NCBI GenBank assembly: GCA_016935095.1
Contig: JAFGRO010000076.1
Span: 15,030-79,029, forward strand
Source of the DNA: Candidatus Woesearchaeota archaeon
GTDB taxonomy: Archaea > Nanobdellota > Nanobdellia > Woesearchaeales > GW2011-AR15
Length of the DNA stretch: 64,000 nucleotides
Direction of reading: 5' to 3'
Shown: piece after piece, positions 2,059-57,812 of the stretch
Numbering within the stretch: position 1 is the first letter of the stretch
Layout of the letters: every line of letters begins with the position of its first letter
Notes under the pieces: generated by a model
What the model saw: the letters and a program-made list of their open reading frames with translations, nothing else
What the model was told of the DNA's origin: nothing
Database searches by the model: none
Translations under genes and position numbers: made by a program

Positions 2059-2100
2059 TTTGATTTAATTTCCTTTTACTTTTAATTTTTCATAATTAAT

Positions 2101-2236
2101 GGAGAGCACACATTGCCCTTGCTGTAATTGAAGACGTCCCTCAATGGTTCCCTGCTCTTATCTAATTAGAAGGGGCGCTTGTGGAACGTCCTGTTTAATG
2201 TCAAGGAACAATCATCCAATCTCACCAAGCCTGAAT
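2101..2236 (+). repeat. Conserved ~135-nt GC-rich intergenic element, copy A of 3 (candidate structured ncRNA or MITE-like family)
   Basis: Shares blocks with copies at 38915-39050 and 43006-43143: TTGCCCT, GTCCCTCAATGG.TCCCT, GAAGGGGCGCTTG.GGAAC, ATCCAATCTC.CC.AAGCCT.AA. Lies about 175 nt upstream of the pilin gene on the same strand. Confidence 0.6.
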
Positions 2237-2409
2237 ATAAATTTTAATTAAATTATATTTTATTTTCACTAAGCCTGATTATTAATTCTATAAAAAAATT
2301 CTTAAAATAAATAAAAGTTGATAGAGAAAATTTTATATAGGTGAAGATATAGAGAAAAATTAATAAATCCGTTTATTATTAGAAAATTTTAAAAAGAGGC
2401 TGATTTACA

Positions 2410-11529: not shown

Positions 11530-11623
11530 ACCCTCACCCCCAATAAAGTTATAATCTAATTTATTAAATCAAACTTTAAATATTTTGCTATTTTTGAGTA
11601 GATAGGTTAAGAATAAAAAAGAC

Positions 11624-11792
11624 TGGGGACAGAGGGATTTGAACCCTCATCCGGTGGTCACTTCATCAAGCGACTGACCACATTCTAAGTCATTGTCTTT
11701 CGACTCATCGCTCCAACACTGGAGCCACCTATTCTAGCCAAGATGTACCCTTCTTGAATTTGATTTTTTCAAAAGGCTTATACTATGTCCCC
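11624..11792 (-). tRNA. Intron-containing tRNA gene (169 nt; isotype/anticodon not resolved by eye; probably more than one intron, one in the D-loop)
   Basis: Minus-strand ends form a perfect acceptor stem GGGGACA ... TGTCCCC-A. Canonical T-arm GAGGG-TTCAAAT-CCCTC. D-stem GTA/TAC flanks a ~23-nt hairpin insert (TTTTGAA...TTCAAGA). About 95 nt of extra sequence sits between the arms. Confidence 0.5.
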
Positions 11793-11955
11793 GTCTTTAT
11801 TCTATGGATTAGAGGATTATATATAAAAGTTTTGGGAAATTTATTATCTTAGAAAATATATATTTTACATAATAAACATTTATATACCCTTTTACACAAT
11901 ATTAATATTAAGAGGTGTTGTTTTAATCAAAAACATAACCAAGCACGATCAATAT

Positions 11956-30948: not shown

Positions 30949-31181
30949 AGCGAAAGATTTAAATATTAGTTATACCATTCTAAAGTAAAGACAAAAACAA
31001 AGAGGAGATTTTCTTTGTTTTACAATCACTCTTCCCAATCACCTCTTTTACACCTTAAGCCTTTAAGAAAGCCTTAAGGGAAACAAGTGCGGCATGCGCT
31101 AAAAACACGCTTAGCCCCACAATCATAATCACCTCTTTTTCCCTGGAAGCGTCTCTTCGGAGATGCTTCGAGGGTTTTAAA

Positions 31182-32882
31182 TCATCTTTTCTTTGAAATT
31201 AAAAACTTTCTTTTTATCAGGATATAACAGATTAAAAATCCCCATACAAACCCAAGGCCGAATATTATTAATTGATATTTCTCAATTATAGGAAATTCAA
31301 ATCTCTTTTGTTTAAAATAAATGTCAAGTTTGCTTAATTCAATAGCATACTCCAAGTACAATAGAGTTGAAAATTCATCTTTTTCTTTTAATGATTTTGC
31401 ATATTCATAATAGCTATAGCCAACAATCGGGAATACATTATTCTGGATTTGCCTTCCTATTATCTGTTCAGCTTCATTTAACCTGTCCTGGATTATTAAA
31501 TCCAGCTGATTTTCGCTTAACCCAAGACTGTTGAGAATAATATTGATTTCAGCTTTTGCTTTGCTTGCCTTAAACAGGCACAGGCTATATTCCTCACTGA
31601 TATAATCTGCATAAGCATATTTTACTTCCTGTTTTATATTTTCAAGTGAAAGAGGCAAATAAAGCTTGGCATATTCAATCCTTTCTTCAACCTCTGATAA
31701 CTTTTTAAGGCATGATTCTTTTATGGAGTCTTTATCAAGGTTAAATTTTTTTCCCGGCTGGTTGAAAAATAATGACCAGGAAATAGCGCTGTTTAATCTT
31801 TCTATGCCAAAAGCCAGGTTATATATGCTTGAATTAGTAAGATTTTCATTAAGGTCTTCACCCGCTTTCCTGAAATATTCTCTGGCGTCAATTATCCTTT
31901 CAGTAACAACCATGTAAGTTTCAAGATCAGTAAGCGTATTAATCTTTTTTCTTGAGATATATTCTTTGAAATCCTTTGTTGTATTATCAAAAACATAGAT
32001 TGAATCCAGGATTTCTTTTTTTGGTAAATCCTGGTTTAATAAGCTCAAATACCTGAGTTTTACATTAGCGCCAAAACAATAGCTGGCAGAGCTATAGAAT
32101 TCGCTTAATAGAAAAGATTCATTGCCTTTTATATACAATTCAAATGCTTCATTGCTTAAAGTATTATTTTCTTTTTTATCAAGCAGGCTTTCAGTTCTTT
32201 TGCAGATTTCTTCAGATATATTTTTCATCGTGTTACTATAATCTGAGCTTATTAATAATGAATAATTTTTTCCGATTTCTTTTCCAGTCAATTCAAAGAT
32301 AGCGTCTCTTAAATTTGAGATTTTTATTATTTCAACATTTGTTTCTTCAGATAGATTCTCCAGAGCAGAATCATTTATGTTTGTCCATCTGGGAATTAAT
32401 ACCCTGCTTAGATTAATATTGCCGGCAAATTCTATCTTTTCATTAATACCCCCTACAGGCCCTATTAAGCCACCTGAATTAATTGTGCCGGTTATAGATG
32501 CTTTTTCATCTAGGGGGATATTTTCCAGGACACTAATTGTTAAAACAGAGATTGCAGCACCTGCACTCGGTCCGCCGACAATTGCCGCATTTGCTCTGAT
32601 AGTGTAAAAAAAATCGTATTTAGAGCAGTCTTTTTCCAGGAAATCACAAGCTATCTCATTTGCAAATCTTGTGGACATTACTGTGTCCAGTTTGGTTAGA
32701 GGAAAAGAATCTATAAAAATCCTTCCTGAGCCCGCTTTAACCTCAAGAAAAAGATCAGCACTGCTCCCGTATTGTTTTTCATTAATTTCGGAAGTAGCCA
32801 ATATCTTCATACTCCCGGTTCTGGCCATTGCAAAAGGGGATATTAAAATAAAAGCCAGTAAAATAAAGATTATTTTTTTCAT
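31182..32882 (-). CDS. Membrane-anchored ATPase-less Lon-like (S16) serine peptidase
   Basis: S16 proteolytic-domain motif GGPSAGAA ... with a downstream Lys. N-terminal signal/TM and C-terminal TM. Start set at the internal MKKIIF (32880-32882) to avoid the extended-ORF overlap. Confidence 0.55.
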   Translation of the reverse strand: MKKIIFILLAFILISPFAMARTGSMKILATSEINEKQYGSSADLFLEVKAGSGRIFIDSFPLTKLDTVMSTRFANEIACDFLEKDCSKYDFFYTIRANAAIVGGPSAGAAISVLTISVLENIPLDEKASITGTINSGGLIGPVGGINEKIEFAGNINLSRVLIPRWTNINDSALENLSEETNVEIIKISNLRDAIFELTGKEIGKNYSLLISSDYSNTMKNISEEICKRTESLLDKKENNTLSNEAFELYIKGNESFLLSEFYSSASYCFGANVKLRYLSLLNQDLPKKEILDSIYVFDNTTKDFKEYISRKKINTLTDLETYMVVTERIIDAREYFRKAGEDLNENLTNSSIYNLAFGIERLNSAISWSLFFNQPGKKFNLDKDSIKESCLKKLSEVEERIEYAKLYLPLSLENIKQEVKYAYADYISEEYSLCLFKASKAKAEINIILNSLGLSENQLDLIIQDRLNEAEQIIGRQIQNNVFPIVGYSYYEYAKSLKEKDEFSTLLYLEYAIELSKLDIYFKQKRFEFPIIEKYQLIIFGLGFVWGFLICYILIKRKFLISKKR

Positions 32883-36081: not shown

Positions 36082-37194
36082 ATGTATCCTATTAATTATA
36101 TTAAATTTGAAAACCTTTTACCAAAAAAATCAAGGTTAGGATACACTCTTTATATTAATTATTTACCTGATAAGTTATTTGTTAAATATAAGGCATTAGC
36201 AAGACAAGTAGAACATATCTTTCCTAAAGAATTGATACTTGATAATAACTTTTTTACAGCGCTTGGTCTGTCTACTGGAGATGGATTAAATAATCCTTCA
36301 ATTAGAAATACACACTACAACTTTGCTAATAGTAATTTTTATTTAGTTTATATTGTATATAATTGGCTTTTAAAATACTTTAATATTAATAAAAGGTCTT
36401 TTCAGTTTCAACTATTCCAAAAAAATAAAAATTTAGATTCTATAGTAAAGATTAGGAGTTTTTTTAATATTAATACTTCAAGAATAAAAGTCTATTATTC
36501 TAATAGGTATAAGGAAGATGTTTTAGTAATACAAATATCTAATCCTATTTTTCAATTATTATACTTAAAACTTTTTGATACATTAAAGCAAGAAATTCTT
36601 AAAAATGAAAATTATAGAAGATCTTTTCTTAAAGGACTTTTTGCAGCTGAAGGTCATGTTAAACACAGTATTTATGGTACTATAGAAAATCTTTCATTTG
36701 CTTTTAATCCTCATAATGAAATCGAATTGGCTCAATTTATTTTTGAGTGCTTTAATAGAGAGGGAATTGAATTTAAAATTAATGACAGTTTGATTTATAC
36801 TTGTGGTTATAATAATATGTTAAAAACATATTTACTAGGAATAATTCAATTACATATTAAAAAGAAAAATAAATTTTTGAGATTAATTAAAAATGCTAAC
36901 TATTTTTTGCATTTTAAAAAAAATAGTTTAGATCTTTTAAGAGACAAAAGTCAGTATGAACTAGCGAAAATATTGGGTTGTTCTCAATCAGGTATAAGTA
37001 AAATGTTGAAGAAGAATTATTTAAGTTATAAAAATATAAGAAAATTAGAAAACAAAGCATTAGTTAATCCAGAAAAACTTTTTAATAAAATTGATTTCAT
37101 TACTGTGTCAACTACCCATATTAGAGATAGCAAATGTATTGATTTTTTGAAGAAGGAGATTTTTTTAAATAGATTATCTCATAATAGTGAATAA
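36082..37194 (+). mobile_element. Free-standing double-motif LAGLIDADG homing endonuclease with C-terminal HTH
   Basis: Two LAGLIDADG-type motifs (LGLSTGDGLNN and LKGLFAAEGHV). C-terminal HTH (YELAKILGCSQSGISKMLKK). Very AT-rich with an A/T-ending codon dialect. GGAGGTGA SD upstream. Confidence 0.6.
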
Positions 37195-37805: not shown

Positions 37806-38798
37806 ATGGACCACATAATAAATAGAATAATTGAAAAGATTCATTCTGATGGAAAGGATTTTCCCTTATTAGATGGGAATTACAAAGCAGCTGAAATATC
37901 CCTCGGGAATTTTCATAAGATTCCCGCTATTAAATCAGCTAAGAAACTGATTTTTGTAGACGGTGGCAGCAGTGAACTATTTAAATCACCGAGCATTAGC
38001 TTGTTTTTCAACAGAATCTATTACACAATCTATCAGAACAATAAGAGAATAAAAAACAAAAAATACGAGTTTTATACTTTAATTTATACTTTAAATAAAA
38101 ATAATAAATTGTTTTTTAAAACAGAGCTTTTCGGGAATGAATTCGATTTTGCAGAGTTAGAATTTGATTCACAGGACAAGACCCTTTGTTTTGGAAAAAA
38201 CAGGGCAAATATCTCTGTATTGGGGGATGTAATAAGGAGATTTGCAGAATTAAAGATTGGCTCTTCAATAAAAGAAGAGGATTCAGTTTTAGTTATGGAC
38301 GGCACACTTGAATTAAAATACTCTTTTGAAGATGAATTTTTAAAAGAATTATTCAGCTCAGCTAAAATAATATGCGGATTATCAAAGACCTGCTCTTTAT
38401 TGACACAGGAAGGAGATTCACTGATTCCAAAACTTGTAAGAATTTCACCTTATGCTTCCTGGTATTATAATCCGGTTCTTACGAATAATTCGGAATTACT
38501 GCCAAATATCTACTTTGTTAAATTCAATAAAAATTCCAGTTATGTTTTCAGGTTTGATGTTCATAAAAATAAATTCATTGATGAAATACTCTCATCATTA
38601 AAAGAGAACAGCAAGGATCCTGTTTTTTTAGGATATCCCTATGGTTTGATTGAAGCAGATAAAATGGCGAGAATCTCTAATAAAGAAACTGAAAGATTAA
38701 AGATGCAGTTAAGAATAAAGCTTGGGAATAATCTGAAAAACACAGAGGATTATGCCAATACATTGAATGCACACGATGTTTTAGATAATATTGGGTAA
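37806..38798 (+). CDS. nurA: NurA-like 5'-3' nuclease (putative)
   Basis: NurA-domain-like motif order: LIFVDGGSS ... VLVMDGTLE ... GYPYGLIEADKMARI. Confidence 0.45.
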   Translation: MDHIINRIIEKIHSDGKDFPLLDGNYKAAEISLGNFHKIPAIKSAKKLIFVDGGSSELFKSPSISLFFNRIYYTIYQNNKRIKNKKYEFYTLIYTLNKNNKLFFKTELFGNEFDFAELEFDSQDKTLCFGKNRANISVLGDVIRRFAELKIGSSIKEEDSVLVMDGTLELKYSFEDEFLKELFSSAKIICGLSKTCSLLTQEGDSLIPKLVRISPYASWYYNPVLTNNSELLPNIYFVKFNKNSSYVFRFDVHKNKFIDEILSSLKENSKDPVFLGYPYGLIEADKMARISNKETERLKMQLRIKLGNNLKNTEDYANTLNAHDVLDNIG

Positions 38799-38914
38799 AA
38801 TATAAGAGTTAATTGAATTAAGGGTATTTATTTTTTATTAATTTTCTTTTAATTTTCTTTTACTTTTAATTTATCATAAATGATTTTTTTTATTTTTAAT
38901 AGTTTAGTAATTAA

Positions 38915-39050
38915 GGGAGGGTGCATGTTGCCCTGGCTGTTTAACATGATGTCCCTCAATAGCTCCCTGCGCATATTTAATCAGAAGGGGCGCTTGGGGA
39001 ACATCTGCTTTGAGATTCAGGAGAAGTTATCCAATCTCCCTAAGCCTAAA
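38915..39050 (+). repeat. Conserved ~135-nt GC-rich intergenic element, copy B of 3
   Basis: Same conserved blocks as copy A. Lies about 200 nt upstream of the PfkB kinase gene on the same strand. Confidence 0.6.
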
Positions 39051-39255
39051 TAAAAAAGTATAAATTAGAATTATTTTTGTTTGATGATTTTTTATTCTGT
39101 CCTTTTTCCAAGCCTGAAAATAAAAAATAAATACTTAATCCCTCTTTTTTTTCAAATCTAAAACTAAATTTGGAATTGAATAATATTAATATCTTTTTTC
39201 AGCAAAATTTATAAAACCAGCATATATATTTCATTCTGTAAAAAGAGGTCTTTCA

Positions 39256-40492: not shown

Positions 40493-42475
40493 CTAATAAA
40501 CAATATCATATCTTAAGATATAGCATTCTCTCATATCTTTGATTGTGCAGAATTTAGATATGTTTTCTTTTATCCTGTCAATTGAGATTTTCCTGTTTAA
40601 TCTATTATTGTAATTAATTTCCACAAACTGTATCTTTTCAAAACAGGCATTATTTGATAAATGTGAAAAAATATATTCATCTGAGAGGGATATTTTATTG
40701 CCTGTTTTAACAAGGAGTTTTTTTTTTATTAGTCCTTCAATGATATTGCCTGCATTAAAGCTTAATTTTTTAATCAAGTCTTCCTCTTCAAAATTTTTGA
40801 ATTTAAACGCGGTATGCAGTACCCTGATCTCGTCTGAAGATAAGTTTTCCAGAGAAGGTAATTTTTTTGTTTTGAAATTATCTAAGTCTATAATAACATC
40901 ACCATTAATCATCTCTATCAATAAATTAAATTCATTTCTTTTTTCTGAGCATAAAATTAAATATCCCGGTATGAGTGTTGTCTCAATCCCTTTGATTTCT
41001 CTGTCAGACATAATCTTAAGGTCTTTTTTAGTTATTTTAGGCATAATCACAGGAAGAAGCTCTTTTTCATTGAACTCCTGGACCTTTTCAAAGAATTTTT
41101 CTTCATCTCGCTGCTCAAGAATATTTACAGCATGACCTCCATGCTTGGTTTTTCTTGGCCTGATGTTCACAAACAGGGGCATATCAACCACACCTGTAAT
41201 CAATGCAGTTCCTATTGGCAGGTTTTTAATTTCATTCTCAGATTCATTAGTTATGCCTTCAACAGAGTTTGCAATGCTTTTTAAGTCACTAGGGTTTGTG
41301 ACTTTGAGGATTATCTGTGTTGTGCACTGGGATAAGACAGATTTATCGACACGAGCAGGCCTCTGGGATATTATGCATAAGCCAAGGCCGAATTTTCTCC
41401 CTTCAGAAGCAACAGTCCTTAGGATCTTTGAGCATCTTGTCTCTCCGAAACTTCTTTCAGGGCAGTAGTTATGTGCCTCTTCAACAACACAGAAAAAAGG
41501 AGGGATTTTTTCTTTTTTCCTTAACTCAAATAAGTCTTTCATTAACTTGTAGACAATAATCTCCTGAACATCAGGTGAGATTCCTTTGAGATTTATAATC
41601 GTGCATTTTCCTAATTGGATAATCTCATTATATGGCAGGTAACTCTCTGTGAAAATATCAAGGTTGTTTAAATATTCTAAATTATTTATTATTGTCCATT
41701 TTGTGTTATTCTCTTCTTTTTCAAGCTCAAATAATACATTAGTGAAATTAATTACATCAAGGTGCTTTACTGCACTATATAACAATCCAAGCTGCGTATT
41801 AGTCAGTTTTCCTGGGATAAGATGTGTAATTTCAACAGGCGACAGATTATTGTTTAGTTTCAATGGTCTTAATTCAGGATTTGATTTTGAATCTCCGTAT
41901 TCATGAATATTTGTAAAGCCAAGCGGCTTTAAATCATATTTTGAAAGGATCTCTTTTTCCTCGATATTAGGGCTTTTCAAAGAAGAGTATTCTCCATGAG
42001 GATCTATTATAAGAAGAGGCACTTTCTTATCAATAATCTCCTCAATCAAAACACCCGAGGTATATGATTTTCCTGCTCCTGATTTTGCAAGGATTGCAAT
42101 ATGCTTTGTGAGAAGTTTTTTTAAATCCAGGATTACATCAATGTTCTTGCCGTCTAATCTGCCTATAAACGCCCCTTTTTCACAATCCTCCAGTTTTATG
42201 ACTGATTTTATAAATTCATCCTCTGCTTTTATGACTTCAGCATTCTGCTCAAACGGGATCCTTATCGGCTTTATTCTTCCCTTATCGTCTTTATAGCCGA
42301 TAACAATGCAGTTGGCAATATCTTTATCTGTGCGCTCAATTTCAATTACCTGGCATAAAACCCATTCATATACTTTATGCATTACCTGCACAAACTCAAA
42401 TTTCTTTGTTTCTTTTTCTACAAGGAATTTAAATTCCGTTGTTGTAATCCTGCCGAAGATTTTACCTAAAATCAT
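40493..42475 (-). CDS. herA: HerA-family (FtsK/HerA superfamily) hexameric ATPase with N-terminal HAS barrel and a ~170-aa C-terminal extension
   Basis: Walker A AILAKSGAGKSYTSG and Walker B FFCVVEEAHNY. The N-terminal beta-rich region precedes the ATPase core. Confidence 0.7.
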   Translation of the reverse strand: MILGKIFGRITTTEFKFLVEKETKKFEFVQVMHKVYEWVLCQVIEIERTDKDIANCIVIGYKDDKGRIKPIRIPFEQNAEVIKAEDEFIKSVIKLEDCEKGAFIGRLDGKNIDVILDLKKLLTKHIAILAKSGAGKSYTSGVLIEEIIDKKVPLLIIDPHGEYSSLKSPNIEEKEILSKYDLKPLGFTNIHEYGDSKSNPELRPLKLNNNLSPVEITHLIPGKLTNTQLGLLYSAVKHLDVINFTNVLFELEKEENNTKWTIINNLEYLNNLDIFTESYLPYNEIIQLGKCTIINLKGISPDVQEIIVYKLMKDLFELRKKEKIPPFFCVVEEAHNYCPERSFGETRCSKILRTVASEGRKFGLGLCIISQRPARVDKSVLSQCTTQIILKVTNPSDLKSIANSVEGITNESENEIKNLPIGTALITGVVDMPLFVNIRPRKTKHGGHAVNILEQRDEEKFFEKVQEFNEKELLPVIMPKITKKDLKIMSDREIKGIETTLIPGYLILCSEKRNEFNLLIEMINGDVIIDLDNFKTKKLPSLENLSSDEIRVLHTAFKFKNFEEEDLIKKLSFNAGNIIEGLIKKKLLVKTGNKISLSDEYIFSHLSNNACFEKIQFVEINYNNRLNRKISIDRIKENISKFCTIKDMRECYILRYDIVY

Positions 42476-42591: not shown

Positions 42592-42954
42592 TTAAGTATT
42601 AGATGACTTAGTTAGTTTTTCAACAACTGCTTTAAGAGTTTGATATGCTCTGAAAAATAATGTTCTACCACTAATAAAGTAGTCAGCAGCACCTTGTGCA
42701 TAAGGATTTCCAATTCTAAGAAACTGTTCAAAGGCAGTTCTTGACTTACTGAAATATTCAAGAATTTGAGAATATTGTTCATTGAAGGGCTCTTTTGATA
42801 AAGTCTCAATTGCAATTTGAAGATATCTATAAACTTGGTGTTTTATTTGTCCAAGATCAATATTAATCTGTGAACCTTTTATTGCATTTTCTAGAATTCT
42901 ATTAGCATTAAAACCTATTCTAAATAATTCTATAAGATCTTCTTCATCTCCCAT
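42592..42954 (-). CDS. Hypothetical helical protein (atypical A/T-ending codon dialect)
   Basis: 120-aa ORF upstream of herA on the same strand, 117-nt gap. No family recognised. Confidence 0.35.
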   Translation of the reverse strand: MGDEEDLIELFRIGFNANRILENAIKGSQINIDLGQIKHQVYRYLQIAIETLSKEPFNEQYSQILEYFSKSRTAFEQFLRIGNPYAQGAADYFISGRTLFFRAYQTLKAVVEKLTKSSNT

Positions 42955-43005
42955 TCTATTAGATTAATAATTATACATTATATTAATATTTTACTTTTAG
43001 TAATT

Positions 43006-43143
43006 GAGGAACAGCACTTCTTGCCCTTCATGTGTCAGATGATGTTCCTCAATGGCTCCTTTCACTCATTATAATGCAAGGGGCGCTTGGGGAACTTCTG
43101 GTTAAATATTTAAAGCAAATATTACATCTCCCCAAGCCTAAAA
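43006..43143 (+). repeat. Conserved ~135-nt GC-rich intergenic element, copy C of 3
   Basis: Same conserved blocks. Lies about 100 nt upstream of the presenilin-like gene on the same strand. Confidence 0.6.
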
Positions 43144-43245
43144 CTAAATTTTAAAAAAATTTGAATTAAGAAATGCCTGTCATATTGATTTTGATTAGAG
43201 ACTGAAAACAAAAATAATTTAAATCTTTGCAATATAGGGATTCTT

Positions 43246-44169
43246 ATGAAGCATGATTTTAAAGTGACTCTCTTTCTTTTAATTTTATTTATTTCAGCCC
43301 AGGTTATTGGTTTGTTTATACTGAACCAAAGTATTATTGTAGAGGAGGCAATTGACGAAATAACAGGAGAAACAAGTGTTGTTTTGGATTATAAGGAAGT
43401 TATTACAGGAAGACCTGAAACCCAGGGAGCATCATCTTTTTTATATGTTTTTTTTGCAATTCTGATCGGGACAATCCTGCTTCTGATACTTATAAAATAC
43501 AAAATGCATAAAGTCTGGAAAACATGGTTCTTTGTTGCAGTCGGAATAACATTATCAATCGTGTTTGATGTTTTTTTTGAAGAAATTATTTCCTTGATCT
43601 TGGGATTTGCATTGGCTTATTTGAAAATATACAGGCCGAATATATTTACGCATAATCTGACAGAGGTTTTTATGTATGCAGGCATAGCCCTGATGATTGT
43701 TCCTATCTTCAATATATTCTGGATGATTATACTGCTGATAACAATCTCAATATATGATATTATTGCTGTTTTTAAAAGCAAGCACATGATTAAGCTTGCA
43801 AAATTCCAGTCCTCATCCAAGATGTTTGCAGGGCTTGTAATCCCCTATAAAAAATTACCACAATCCTCTTCGGAAATAAAAATCCATATACCTAAAGGAA
43901 TAAAGAAACAGGGCGTTAAATCCGCTATTTTAGGAGGAGGGGATATGGCATTTCCTTTGCTGTTTGCCGGTGTAGTGATGGAAAATCTGATTGTAGTTAA
44001 TCATATGACAAAACAATTAGCTTTTTTTAAGACATTAATCATACCTGTATTTGCCTGTATGGCTTTGGCAGTCTTATTATATTTAAGCAAAAAAAACAAG
44101 TTTTATCCTGCAATGCCGTTTTTAACTGCCGGCTGCCTGCTTGGATACGGGATTATTTTTTTTATTTAA
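43246..44169 (+). CDS. Presenilin/signal-peptide-peptidase-like intramembrane aspartyl protease (A22 family homolog)
   Basis: 9 TM. YD motif (SIYDIIAVF) and GxGD motif (LGGGDMAFP) in consecutive TM helices. C-terminal PAL-like motif (PAMPFL). Confidence 0.6.
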   Translation: MKHDFKVTLFLLILFISAQVIGLFILNQSIIVEEAIDEITGETSVVLDYKEVITGRPETQGASSFLYVFFAILIGTILLLILIKYKMHKVWKTWFFVAVGITLSIVFDVFFEEIISLILGFALAYLKIYRPNIFTHNLTEVFMYAGIALMIVPIFNIFWMIILLITISIYDIIAVFKSKHMIKLAKFQSSSKMFAGLVIPYKKLPQSSSEIKIHIPKGIKKQGVKSAILGGGDMAFPLLFAGVVMENLIVVNHMTKQLAFFKTLIIPVFACMALAVLLYLSKKNKFYPAMPFLTAGCLLGYGIIFFI

Positions 44170-57702: not shown

Positions 57703-57812
57703 TGCGGGGGACGTGATTTGAACACGCGCAGGCACTAAGCCACATGGACCTCAACCATGCCCGTTTGACCATTCCGTATTCATTTTATTAATGAATTCTC
57801 CGGCACCCCCGC
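57703..57812 (-). tRNA. tRNA-Leu(GAG) with a ~22-nt hairpin intron in the D-loop (non-canonical position)
   Basis: Minus strand GCGGGGG-TG-CCG-GAG[AATTCATTAATAAAATGAATAC]GGAATGGTCAAA-CGG-G-CATGG-TTGAGGT-CCATG-variable arm TGGCTTAGTGCCTG-CGTG-TTCAAAT-CACG-T-CCCCCGC-A. Anticodon loop TT-GAG-GT. Long variable arm (type II). No encoded CCA. Confidence 0.75.

Follow-up and report, generated by a model that had tools for sequence, protein, structure and literature searches.

A hairpin-forming intergenic element of a Woesearchaeota genome, probably a transcribed dispersed repeat or a small RNA

What is the GC-rich island that stands in the divergent spacer upstream of a presenilin-like gene of a Candidatus Woesearchaeota archaeon, and does it serve that gene or belong to a family dispersed through the genome? 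The locus lies in a stretch of 64,000 nucleotides of contig JAFGRO010000076.1 (assembly GCA_016935095.1, positions 15,030 to 79,029 of the forward strand; hereafter the window). An initial annotation had described the island as copy C, the third copy of a conserved element and the most diverged of the three, and had raised the possibility that its 3' block CTCC.CAAGCCT acts as a promoter or attenuator. The answer we propose is that copy C and its relatives are, as judged from their sequences, probably a transcribed dispersed repeat or a small RNA (sRNA). More specifically, and with somewhat less than even confidence, we read copy C as a member of a lineage-restricted family of small dispersed intergenic repeats of the ERIC/REP kind, which form hairpins and are putatively transcribed. 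We know of no archaeal family that has the sequence of this element.

A family of intergenic units in two Woesearchaeota genomes

The covariance model (CM) R1, built from four copies (A, B and C in the window and D outside it), finds with its filters off exactly three copies on the + strand of the window (Table 1), the next + strand match scoring 15.6 bits, and copy C is indeed a third copy of the conserved element. It is also the most diverged of the three, being 68% identical to A and 69% to B, against 73% between A and B; among the four full copies the pairwise identities span 68-76%, and D, from another genome, is as near to A and B as A is to B. Each unit is a GC-rich imperfect palindrome of about 145 nt, with a T-rich box in front of it and an A/T-rich tail behind it. 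The homology of copy C begins at 43000-43003, a few bases before position 43006 where the island had been taken to start, and ends at about 43148; its GC content is 0.41-0.49, against a window mean of 0.33, and the remainder of the 291-nt spacer (42955-43245) has about 20-25% GC. The two sequence blocks that had been said to survive in this copy, GGGGCGCTTGGGGAAC and CCAAGCCTAAA, are both present. With up to three mismatches allowed, GGGGCGCTTGGGGAAC occurs at three sites of the window (2172, 38987 and 43080), all on the + strand, where 0.09 are expected, and the five exact occurrences of YYAAGCCTRA in the window all lie within or just after the three copies.

Copies in other genomes were looked for, and a second Woesearchaeota metagenome-assembled genome (MAG) carries one full and one partial copy, D and E. 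A scan of GTDB (one representative genome per species) with the pattern CCTCAAT-N(20-35)-AAGGGGCGCTTGNGG returned a single real match, copy D, and three chance matches in GC-rich bacteria. Copy D lies on JAFGLI010000009.1, another Woesearchaeota bin of the same sample series from the same spring, Zodletone. In copy E the 5' module is intact up to CCCTCAAT and is followed by different sequence with a small hairpin, UUUUUGG/CCAAAAA, at its end; it is as though the greater portion of the 3' part had been lost or exchanged. The pattern scan of the JGI metagenomes gave 22 loci, all in GC-rich DNA and unrelated beyond the pattern, with no real copy; in IMG/VR the core pattern had 0 matches and a looser pattern 66, of which the CM accepted none; no copy was found in a phage collection by blastn, nor in about 88 kb from six related bins, whose contigs were fetched through their homologues of the SPP and DRG-GTPase genes. 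The family therefore stands at five known copies (four full and one partial) in two MAGs, all five intergenic.

The positions of the copies are not conserved between relatives: a relative with 69% identity in SPP keeps the gene order PfkB, small open reading frame (ORF), DUF87, SPP, and has no element before either PfkB or SPP. The units are moreover modular or decayed, copy E being reduced to the 5' module and the 3' ends of A and B being duplicated: their last 25 nt or so (YYAAGCCTRA with its A/T-rich tail) recur at a distance of 44 nt in A and of 68 nt in B (39040-39066 and 39108-39134). A short imperfect palindrome, strictly intergenic, present in several dispersed copies whose positions differ between relatives, is what characterizes a dispersed repeat. 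The Logan contigs of run SRR13394437 point the same way, one (L031) ending at position 2142 of the window, inside A, another (L027) starting at 39078, 22 nt after B, and a third (L033) starting inside D. These three independent contig ends suggest that the units are repeated or polymorphic in the community, because an assembler behaves in this manner at repeats or polymorphic sites.

The insertion-like presence and absence between related genomes, the deletion derivative E and the assembly breaks at the copies would equally suit a non-autonomous mobile element, either a miniature inverted-repeat transposable element (MITE) or a palindrome-associated transposable element (PATE) of the IS200/IS605 type, moved in trans by a transposase encoded elsewhere and recognized through its end hairpins. 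Hairpin 1 (UUAAGGGA/UCCCUCAA) and hairpin 3 (UUGGGGA/UCCCCAA), which are described below, have similar arms in the same orientation, as do the left and right ends of IS200/IS605, and copy B lies within a perfect 16-nt inverted repeat that is statistically exceptional, since it exceeds the longest found in 300 shuffles (at most 14 nt) and in 125 other windows of 511 nt (at most 13 nt). However, the sequence of this outer repeat is absent at A and C; it is therefore not a feature of the family and does not provide it with a terminal repeat, and a MITE with shared terminal repeats was set aside on this account. No target-site duplication is visible in the flank alignments, although AT-rich flanks and uncertain boundaries make one hard to see; hairpin 1 stands at varying distances from the TTAC-containing box, and the copies are old and evenly diverged (68-76%), with their conservation inside the element and not at its ends. 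Neither a transposase, nor TnpB, nor an integrase is found among 30 window proteins compared with Pfam or among the Pfam labels of the genes of the contig that bears D and E (L032), and the labels of the genes called in L027 are likewise free of transposase and TnpB. We consequently regard a mobile element as quite unlikely. As an observation on copy B itself, its inverted repeat bounds a unit of 311 nt that includes the box and the duplicated 3' motif, and reaches about 23 nt when an indel of 2 nt is tolerated.

Conserved tracts and predicted folding

The conservation of the unit is block-wise. Near-invariant blocks, namely TGCCCT, GT(C/T)CCTCAAT, GCTCC(C/T)T, AAGGGGCGCTTG(G/T)GGAAC and ATCTC(C/A)C(C/T)AAGCCT, stand amid stretches that have diverged almost freely, and the 18-nt AAGGGGCGCTTGGGGAAC is identical in B, C and D and has a single change in A. 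The unit contains three G-tracts (G1, G2 and G3) and four C-tracts (C1-C4), which give a single strand two ways of folding. In fold X, C2-C3 pairs with G2-G3 in a long central hairpin (GANGU-CCUCAA-GC-UCCCU / AGGGG-CGC-UUGGGG-ACNUC); RNAalifold predicts this fold, and A, B and D have it as their structure of lowest energy. Fold Y consists of three successive hairpins (G1:C2, C3:G2 and G3:C4) and is the structure of lowest energy for C (-45 kcal/mol, z score -4.4). These mutually exclusive folds fit the element equally well, standard pairs occupying 95.6% of the cells of the four-sequence alignment for X and 92.7% for Y; sliding the partners by 1-3 columns lowers this share to 35-60%. Hairpin 1 is in C a perfect 10-bp helix of G1 (43003-43012) with 43044-43053, and in the other copies 7-8 of its 9 positions are paired, the mismatches being mostly A.C; the pairs of the central hairpin form in 100% of the cells in the four copies, around a loop without conservation; hairpin 3 is retained by B through a G.U pair and by A only with a register slip of 1 nt. 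Each fold shows one double-sided change, at pair 45-98 for X (C-G, U-A, A-U and one U.U) and at pair 11-48 for Y, where two copies have G-C, copy C has A-U and D is unpaired. The energy gap between the folds is not conserved: A prefers X by 11.5 kcal/mol, B by 3.7 and D by 3.6, and C prefers Y by 11.9. The complementarity is conserved; the RNA structure is a prediction.

Table 1. Copy C, its parts, the other copies in the window and the adjoining features (window positions, unless a contig is named)
Feature	Position	Strand	Basis or remark
Copy C, core element	43000-43148	+	R1 match 43006-43148, 148.4 bits; match of the 5'-module model R2 43000-43060, 76.7 bits
Upstream T-rich box of C, TTTTACTTTTAG	42989-43000	+	Shortened form of CTTTTACTTTTAATTT of A, B and D; flank alignment
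G1 tract, ATTGAGGAAC	43003-43012	+	5' arm of hairpin 1 in fold Y
C1 tract, TTGCCCT	43021-43027	+	Alignments; TGCCCT invariant in 5/5 copies, without a fixed partner
C2 tract, GTTCCTCAAT	43044-43053	+	Partner of G1 in fold Y or of G3 in fold X
Central hairpin: C3 GGCTCCTT, variable apical loop, G2 AAGGGGCGC	43054-43086	+	
G2-G3 block, GGGGCGCTTGGGGAAC	43080-43095	+	Most conserved stretch
Hairpin 3 of fold Y	43085-43137	+	9-bp helix of GCTTGGGGA (43085-43093) with TCCCCAAGC (43129-43137); variable loop
3' block, CCAAGCCTAAA	43132-43142	+	Block named by the initial annotation
Copy A, core	2092-2241	+	R1 match 2098-2241, 162 bits; box 2073-2088
Second 3' end of A, TCACTAAGCCTGATTATTAATTCTA	2266-2290	+	84% identical to 2222-2246
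Copy B, core	38907-39056	+	R1 match 38913-39056, 159.6 bits; box 38857-38872, degenerate second box 38884-38900
Second 3' motif after B, TTCCAAGCCTGA	39106-39117	+	
Perfect 16-nt inverted repeat around B	38824-38839 / 39119-39134		B-specific
Partial copy E	L032:12-140	-	R2 match, 70.7 bits; very end of a 15-kb contig that also carries D
120-aa ORF	42592-42954	-	Flanks copy C; start 46 nt from the element
307-aa ORF, presenilin/SPP type	43246-44169	+	Matches Pfam PF06550 (SPP)
B recognition element (BRE)/TATA-like motif of the SPP gene, AAAAATAATTTAAATC	about 21-36 nt before ATG	+	

The whole element is an imperfect palindrome, on which R1 scores the reverse strand at 29-43 bits in register about the apical loop, and the arms of copy D, 33 nt long, are 79% complementary. 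Since the palindrome is present on both strands, its arms are GC islands in AT-rich spacers, and both arms are conserved in sequence far beyond the needs of pairing, the copies might be double-stranded DNA sites for a sequence-specific protein, such as a segregation, nucleoid or origin-binding factor, with GTCCCTCAATGGCTCCCT and AAGGGGCGCTTGGGGAAC as GC-rich half-sites. Half-sites of 18 nt with a variable spacer of 17-20 nt argue against it, and such a layout is unlike any archaeal operator or origin-recognition box known to us. In addition, the copies are dispersed at 2, 39 and 43 kb instead of being clustered, no Orc1/Cdc6 or partition gene is present among the scanned proteins, and asymmetries of the G.U type between the arms, for instance the conserved U51.G92, suggest a single-stranded form. 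We therefore give this interpretation very little credence; origin-recognition boxes in particular were discarded on the lack of clustering and of an Orc1/Cdc6 gene among the scanned proteins.

The main rival is a family of sRNA genes that would be transcribed independently and act in trans, each started from a promoter of its own in the AT-rich box and stopped at a U-tract (AAAUUUU) beyond the core. Whichever fold forms, a C-rich tract, UUGCCCUU or AUCUCCCCAAGCC, is left unpaired, and would pair with the G-rich ribosome-binding regions of target mRNAs. With four C-tracts for three G-tracts one C-tract is always free, TGCCCT is invariant in all five copies, motifs of the GAGG Shine-Dalgarno type are used in the host genome, and conserved blocks combined with free loops are typical of a functional RNA. 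The box, which in A, B and D has the common form TAATTT(C/T)CTTTTACTTTT(A/T)ATTT, is conserved as well: CTTTTACTTTTAATTT is exact in A and B and differs by one base in D, and it is no generic motif of the window, where the exact 16-mer occurs only upstream of A (2073) and B (38857). A TTTAATTT motif stands about 27 nt before an ATTAAGG start in A and D, a U-tract follows the core by 10-35 nt (in A, C and D an AAATTT(T)A motif lies 10-15 nt after it), and the four full copies are all co-oriented with their downstream genes. However, the distance between box and core varies from 8 nt in C through 14-15 nt in A and D to 46 nt in B, a range of 8-46 nt that agrees poorly with a fixed transcription start, and the box, rich in T-tracts, could equally be the terminator of the upstream gene and does not have the AAA(nn)TTTAWAWA form that is found before most genes of the window. 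Folding leaves the strand ambiguous, and in a search of the window for targets of the free C-tract only the elements themselves exceed chance. On this balance the sequence evidence makes independent sRNA genes possible, though unlikely.

The two folds of the element also lend themselves to a bolder proposal, that DPANN archaea possess a new, bistable class of regulatory RNA, in which a switch between the three hairpins (G1:C2, G3:C4) and the long hairpin (C2:G3) would expose or hide a C-rich tract resembling an anti-Shine-Dalgarno sequence, thereby providing neighbouring or distant genes with the counterpart of an attenuator or riboregulator. We consider such a switch very doubtful.

Neighbouring genes and the action of the element

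Copy C indeed occupies the divergent intergenic region between the start of the 120-aa ORF, which matches no Pfam family, and the presenilin-like gene, a database twin of which is annotated in a Candidatus Woesearchaeota bin. All four full copies are co-oriented with the gene downstream. Copy A follows two T2SSF/FlaJ-like genes and precedes that of a pilin-like protein with a class III signal peptide; copy B follows NurA and precedes a PfkB kinase; the gene downstream of C encodes the SPP protease, and copy D is followed by an acidic 52-aa peptide and then by MetRS. These downstream genes are functionally unrelated. Most genes of the window are preceded, at about -25 to -50, by an AAA-nn-TTTAWAWA motif, and the PfkB, SPP and pilin-like genes each possess their own BRE/TATA-like motif of this type between the element and the ATG, together with a GAGG Shine-Dalgarno motif in the case of the PfkB and pilin-like genes. 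On the opposite strand, the box of copy C overlaps the TATA-like motif of the 120-aa gene.

This context bears directly on the proposal that the element is a cis-acting 5' leader or attenuator, in which the pairings 1:2 and 3:4 (G1:C2 and G3:C4) on the one hand and 2:3 (C2:G3) on the other would switch read-through according to the logic of the trp attenuator. In its favour, two mutually exclusive folds arise from the same segments, with energies within 4 kcal/mol of each other in B and D, each is accompanied by one double-sided change, and the four full copies are all oriented towards the downstream gene. A promoter or attenuator role is nevertheless unsupported, because the genes that follow the copies have no function in common and possess promoter-like motifs of their own, and the syntenic PfkB and SPP loci of the relative have no element before them. 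The 3' CTCC.CAAGCCT block, for which this role had been suggested, turns out to be the 3' arm of the 9-bp helix with GCTTGGGGA; no U-tract abuts hairpin 3, the element lies 80-206 nt from the start codons, and the balance of energies swings from X in A to Y in C, by more than 11 kcal/mol each way. Archaeal termination is, moreover, not known to us to depend on hairpins. Among the RNA readings the promoter or attenuator is the least supported, and we judge it improbable. A riboswitch or other leader is likewise unsupported, for there is no coherent set of downstream genes.

We return to the family of dispersed ERIC/REP-like repeats, which is the reading that we favour. The common orientation of the copies and the asymmetry of their flanks suggest a unit that works in a transcript. 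Selection on the capacity to form hairpins would keep the conserved tracts, rather than the ends, and the hairpin would most likely form in a transcript read in the direction of the flanking genes. Its action would be local: standing as a stable structure between transcription units, it would block or terminate read-through and shield the ends of the RNA, and would be neither the promoter nor a ligand-sensing leader of the downstream gene.

Several observations weigh against this reading. Most pairs never vary, and the covariation score is equalled in 83-276 of 500 shuffles, so that with four full sequences covariation does not rise above the shuffle control; the structure rests on conserved complementarity, which DNA would equally show. 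Copies A (z -0.14) and B (z -0.79) fold no better than shuffled sequences, and only C (-4.4) and D (-3.2) stand out. Both D and A are more stable on the opposite strand, D reaching there -58 kcal/mol with a z score of -7.1; the choice of a strand by folding energy was given up, the copies contradicting one another. The shared orientation, whose probability by chance is 1/16, is unexpected for a symmetric selfish repeat. Finally, the local role in insulation and in the protection of RNA ends is proposed by analogy.

Other observations concern the neighbourhood of copies B and C. At the related locus L028, a gene of the Phosphodiest family lies on the other strand at the place corresponding to the 120-aa ORF, and the 120-aa gene and copy C may have arrived together; at the same locus an NFACT_N gene, not NurA, precedes PfkB. 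In the window NurA (37806-38798, +) and the HerA-type ATPase with the DUF87 domain (40493-42475, -) are apart and on opposite strands, with copy B, the PfkB kinase and a small ORF between them. A 370-aa ORF 2 kb upstream of B (36082-37194, +) has weak, sub-threshold matches to LAGLIDADG_3 and HTH_3, and a LAGLIDADG_3 gene is also present at the related locus L103. The 3' ends of the SPP gene and of the convergent glycosyltransferase-2/TPR gene share 48 nt (44122-44169).

Known classes, significance and comparison with known systems

The comparison of the 30 window proteins with Pfam yields housekeeping enzymes, among them aminoacyl-tRNA synthetases, GatDE, Cdc48, topoisomerase I, a DnaG-type primase, a Hef-like helicase/nuclease and an RNA polymerase subunit, and no Cas protein, reverse transcriptase, transposase, integrase, TnpB or Orc1/Cdc6. 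Rfam 15 has no match anywhere in the window at gathering thresholds; with E<=10, only differing sub-threshold matches of 9-18 bits appear in the three copies, which have no family in common. ARAGORN found neither a transfer RNA (tRNA) nor a transfer-messenger RNA (tmRNA), and the element is devoid of a T-arm motif (GTTCRAATC), which also disposes of split or permuted tRNA halves. A small protein gene was rejected after a six-frame comparison, which reveals no frame that both has a start codon and stays open in every copy; the ORF of 42 aa in B meets stops in A and C and has no relatives in the protein database. A repeat of a diversity-generating retroelement was rejected on the intergenic position of all copies, on differences that involve all four bases and on the lack of a reverse transcriptase among the scanned proteins. 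Inspected by eye, B and C have a UGAUGA-like stretch that A and D do not have, and neither the 3' motif of C nor the first one of B contains CUGA, which speaks against a C/D-box sRNA; no ACA box stands at a fixed distance, as would be seen by eye in an H/ACA sRNA. A Twister-like ribozyme, suggested by AAGCGCC on the minus strand, has no support from Rfam.

Three other stretches of the window resemble RNA genes. At 57703-57808 (-) a GC-rich sequence of 106 nt has an acceptor stem GCGGGGG/CCCCCGC, the T-arm GTTCAAATC, the anticodon loop TTGAGGT (Leu-GAG-like) and an AT-rich insert in the D region; its match to the Rfam tRNA model is sub-threshold (21.6 bits, E 0.022), and neither ARAGORN nor Rfam at gathering thresholds reports a tRNA anywhere in the window. 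A second tRNA-like gene of about 175 nt, with the T-arm GAGGGTTCAAATCCCTC and an acceptor end and presumably with large or multiple introns, lies at about 11615-11795 (-), where the only Rfam signal is the tRNA-like end of tmRNA (E 2.8e-5). Between two minus-strand genes, at 31020-31190, about 160 nt of non-coding sequence with a GC content of 0.51 contain CTTAAGCCTTTAAGAAAGCCTTAAGGG and the UUCG-capped hairpin GGAAGCGTCTCTTCGGAGATGCTTC; this stretch has no Rfam match at gathering thresholds and may be another unannotated RNA.

The DPANN archaea are known almost only from metagenome bins, and have small genomes with little spacer DNA, of whose non-coding RNAs and repeat elements, to our knowledge, almost nothing is known. 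Three units in 64 kb take up a visible share of this scarce intergenic space. Being common to two distinct Woesearchaeota of the spring and not found in the related loci, the family is either a functional RNA under selection or an element that moves both between and within these genomes; either outcome would be a first description for the lineage, and the CM offers a handle on more copies. The coincidence of the units with contig breaks indicates that they probably limit the contiguity of such bins.

How does the element compare with systems that are already known? Its four segments, which pair as 1:2 and 3:4 or as 2:3, recall the trp-type attenuators and the platforms of riboswitches, from which it differs by the lack of a leader peptide and of a U-tract abutting the 3:4 hairpin, by unrelated downstream genes with promoter-like motifs of their own and by an energy balance that is not conserved. 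It has in common with RsaE/RoxS of the Firmicutes several tracts of the UCCC type, at least one of them unpaired, that could bind G-rich ribosome-binding sites; however, most of its C-tracts have predicted partners in its own G-tracts, the window yielded no targets, and there is no homology. A GC-rich island in an AT-rich spacer is the classic signature of a non-coding RNA gene in AT-rich archaea, and the element, with a GC content of 0.41-0.53 and a predicted stable structure, resembles in this respect the Hgc RNAs that emerged from GC-content screens in Methanocaldococcus and Pyrococcus. In contrast to these, it matches no Rfam family, HgcC, HgcE, HgcF and HgcG included, is present in several copies and is palindromic.

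The archaeal MITEs (for example SM1-4 of Sulfolobus and those of haloarchaea) and the PATEs derived from IS200/IS605 are, like the element, short, non-coding, hairpin-forming and intergenic, and have near their ends a pair of similar hairpins that face the same way, whereas the family of copy C has no shared terminal inverted repeat or near-identical copies and no visible target-site duplication or partner transposase. The class of ERIC/IRU, REP/BIME, BOX, RUP and Correia remains for comparison. From it the family of copy C differs in being archaeal (DPANN, Woesearchaeota) and without common sequence with its members, in numbering so far five copies in two MAGs, in its greater divergence (68-76%), in a conservation confined to the G- and C-tracts and in the co-orientation of its full copies. 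It shares with this class the imperfect palindrome of 100-150 nt, the strictly intergenic position, the several dispersed copies per genome, a presence or absence that differs between relatives, the modular and truncated variants and the possibility of forming long RNA hairpins.

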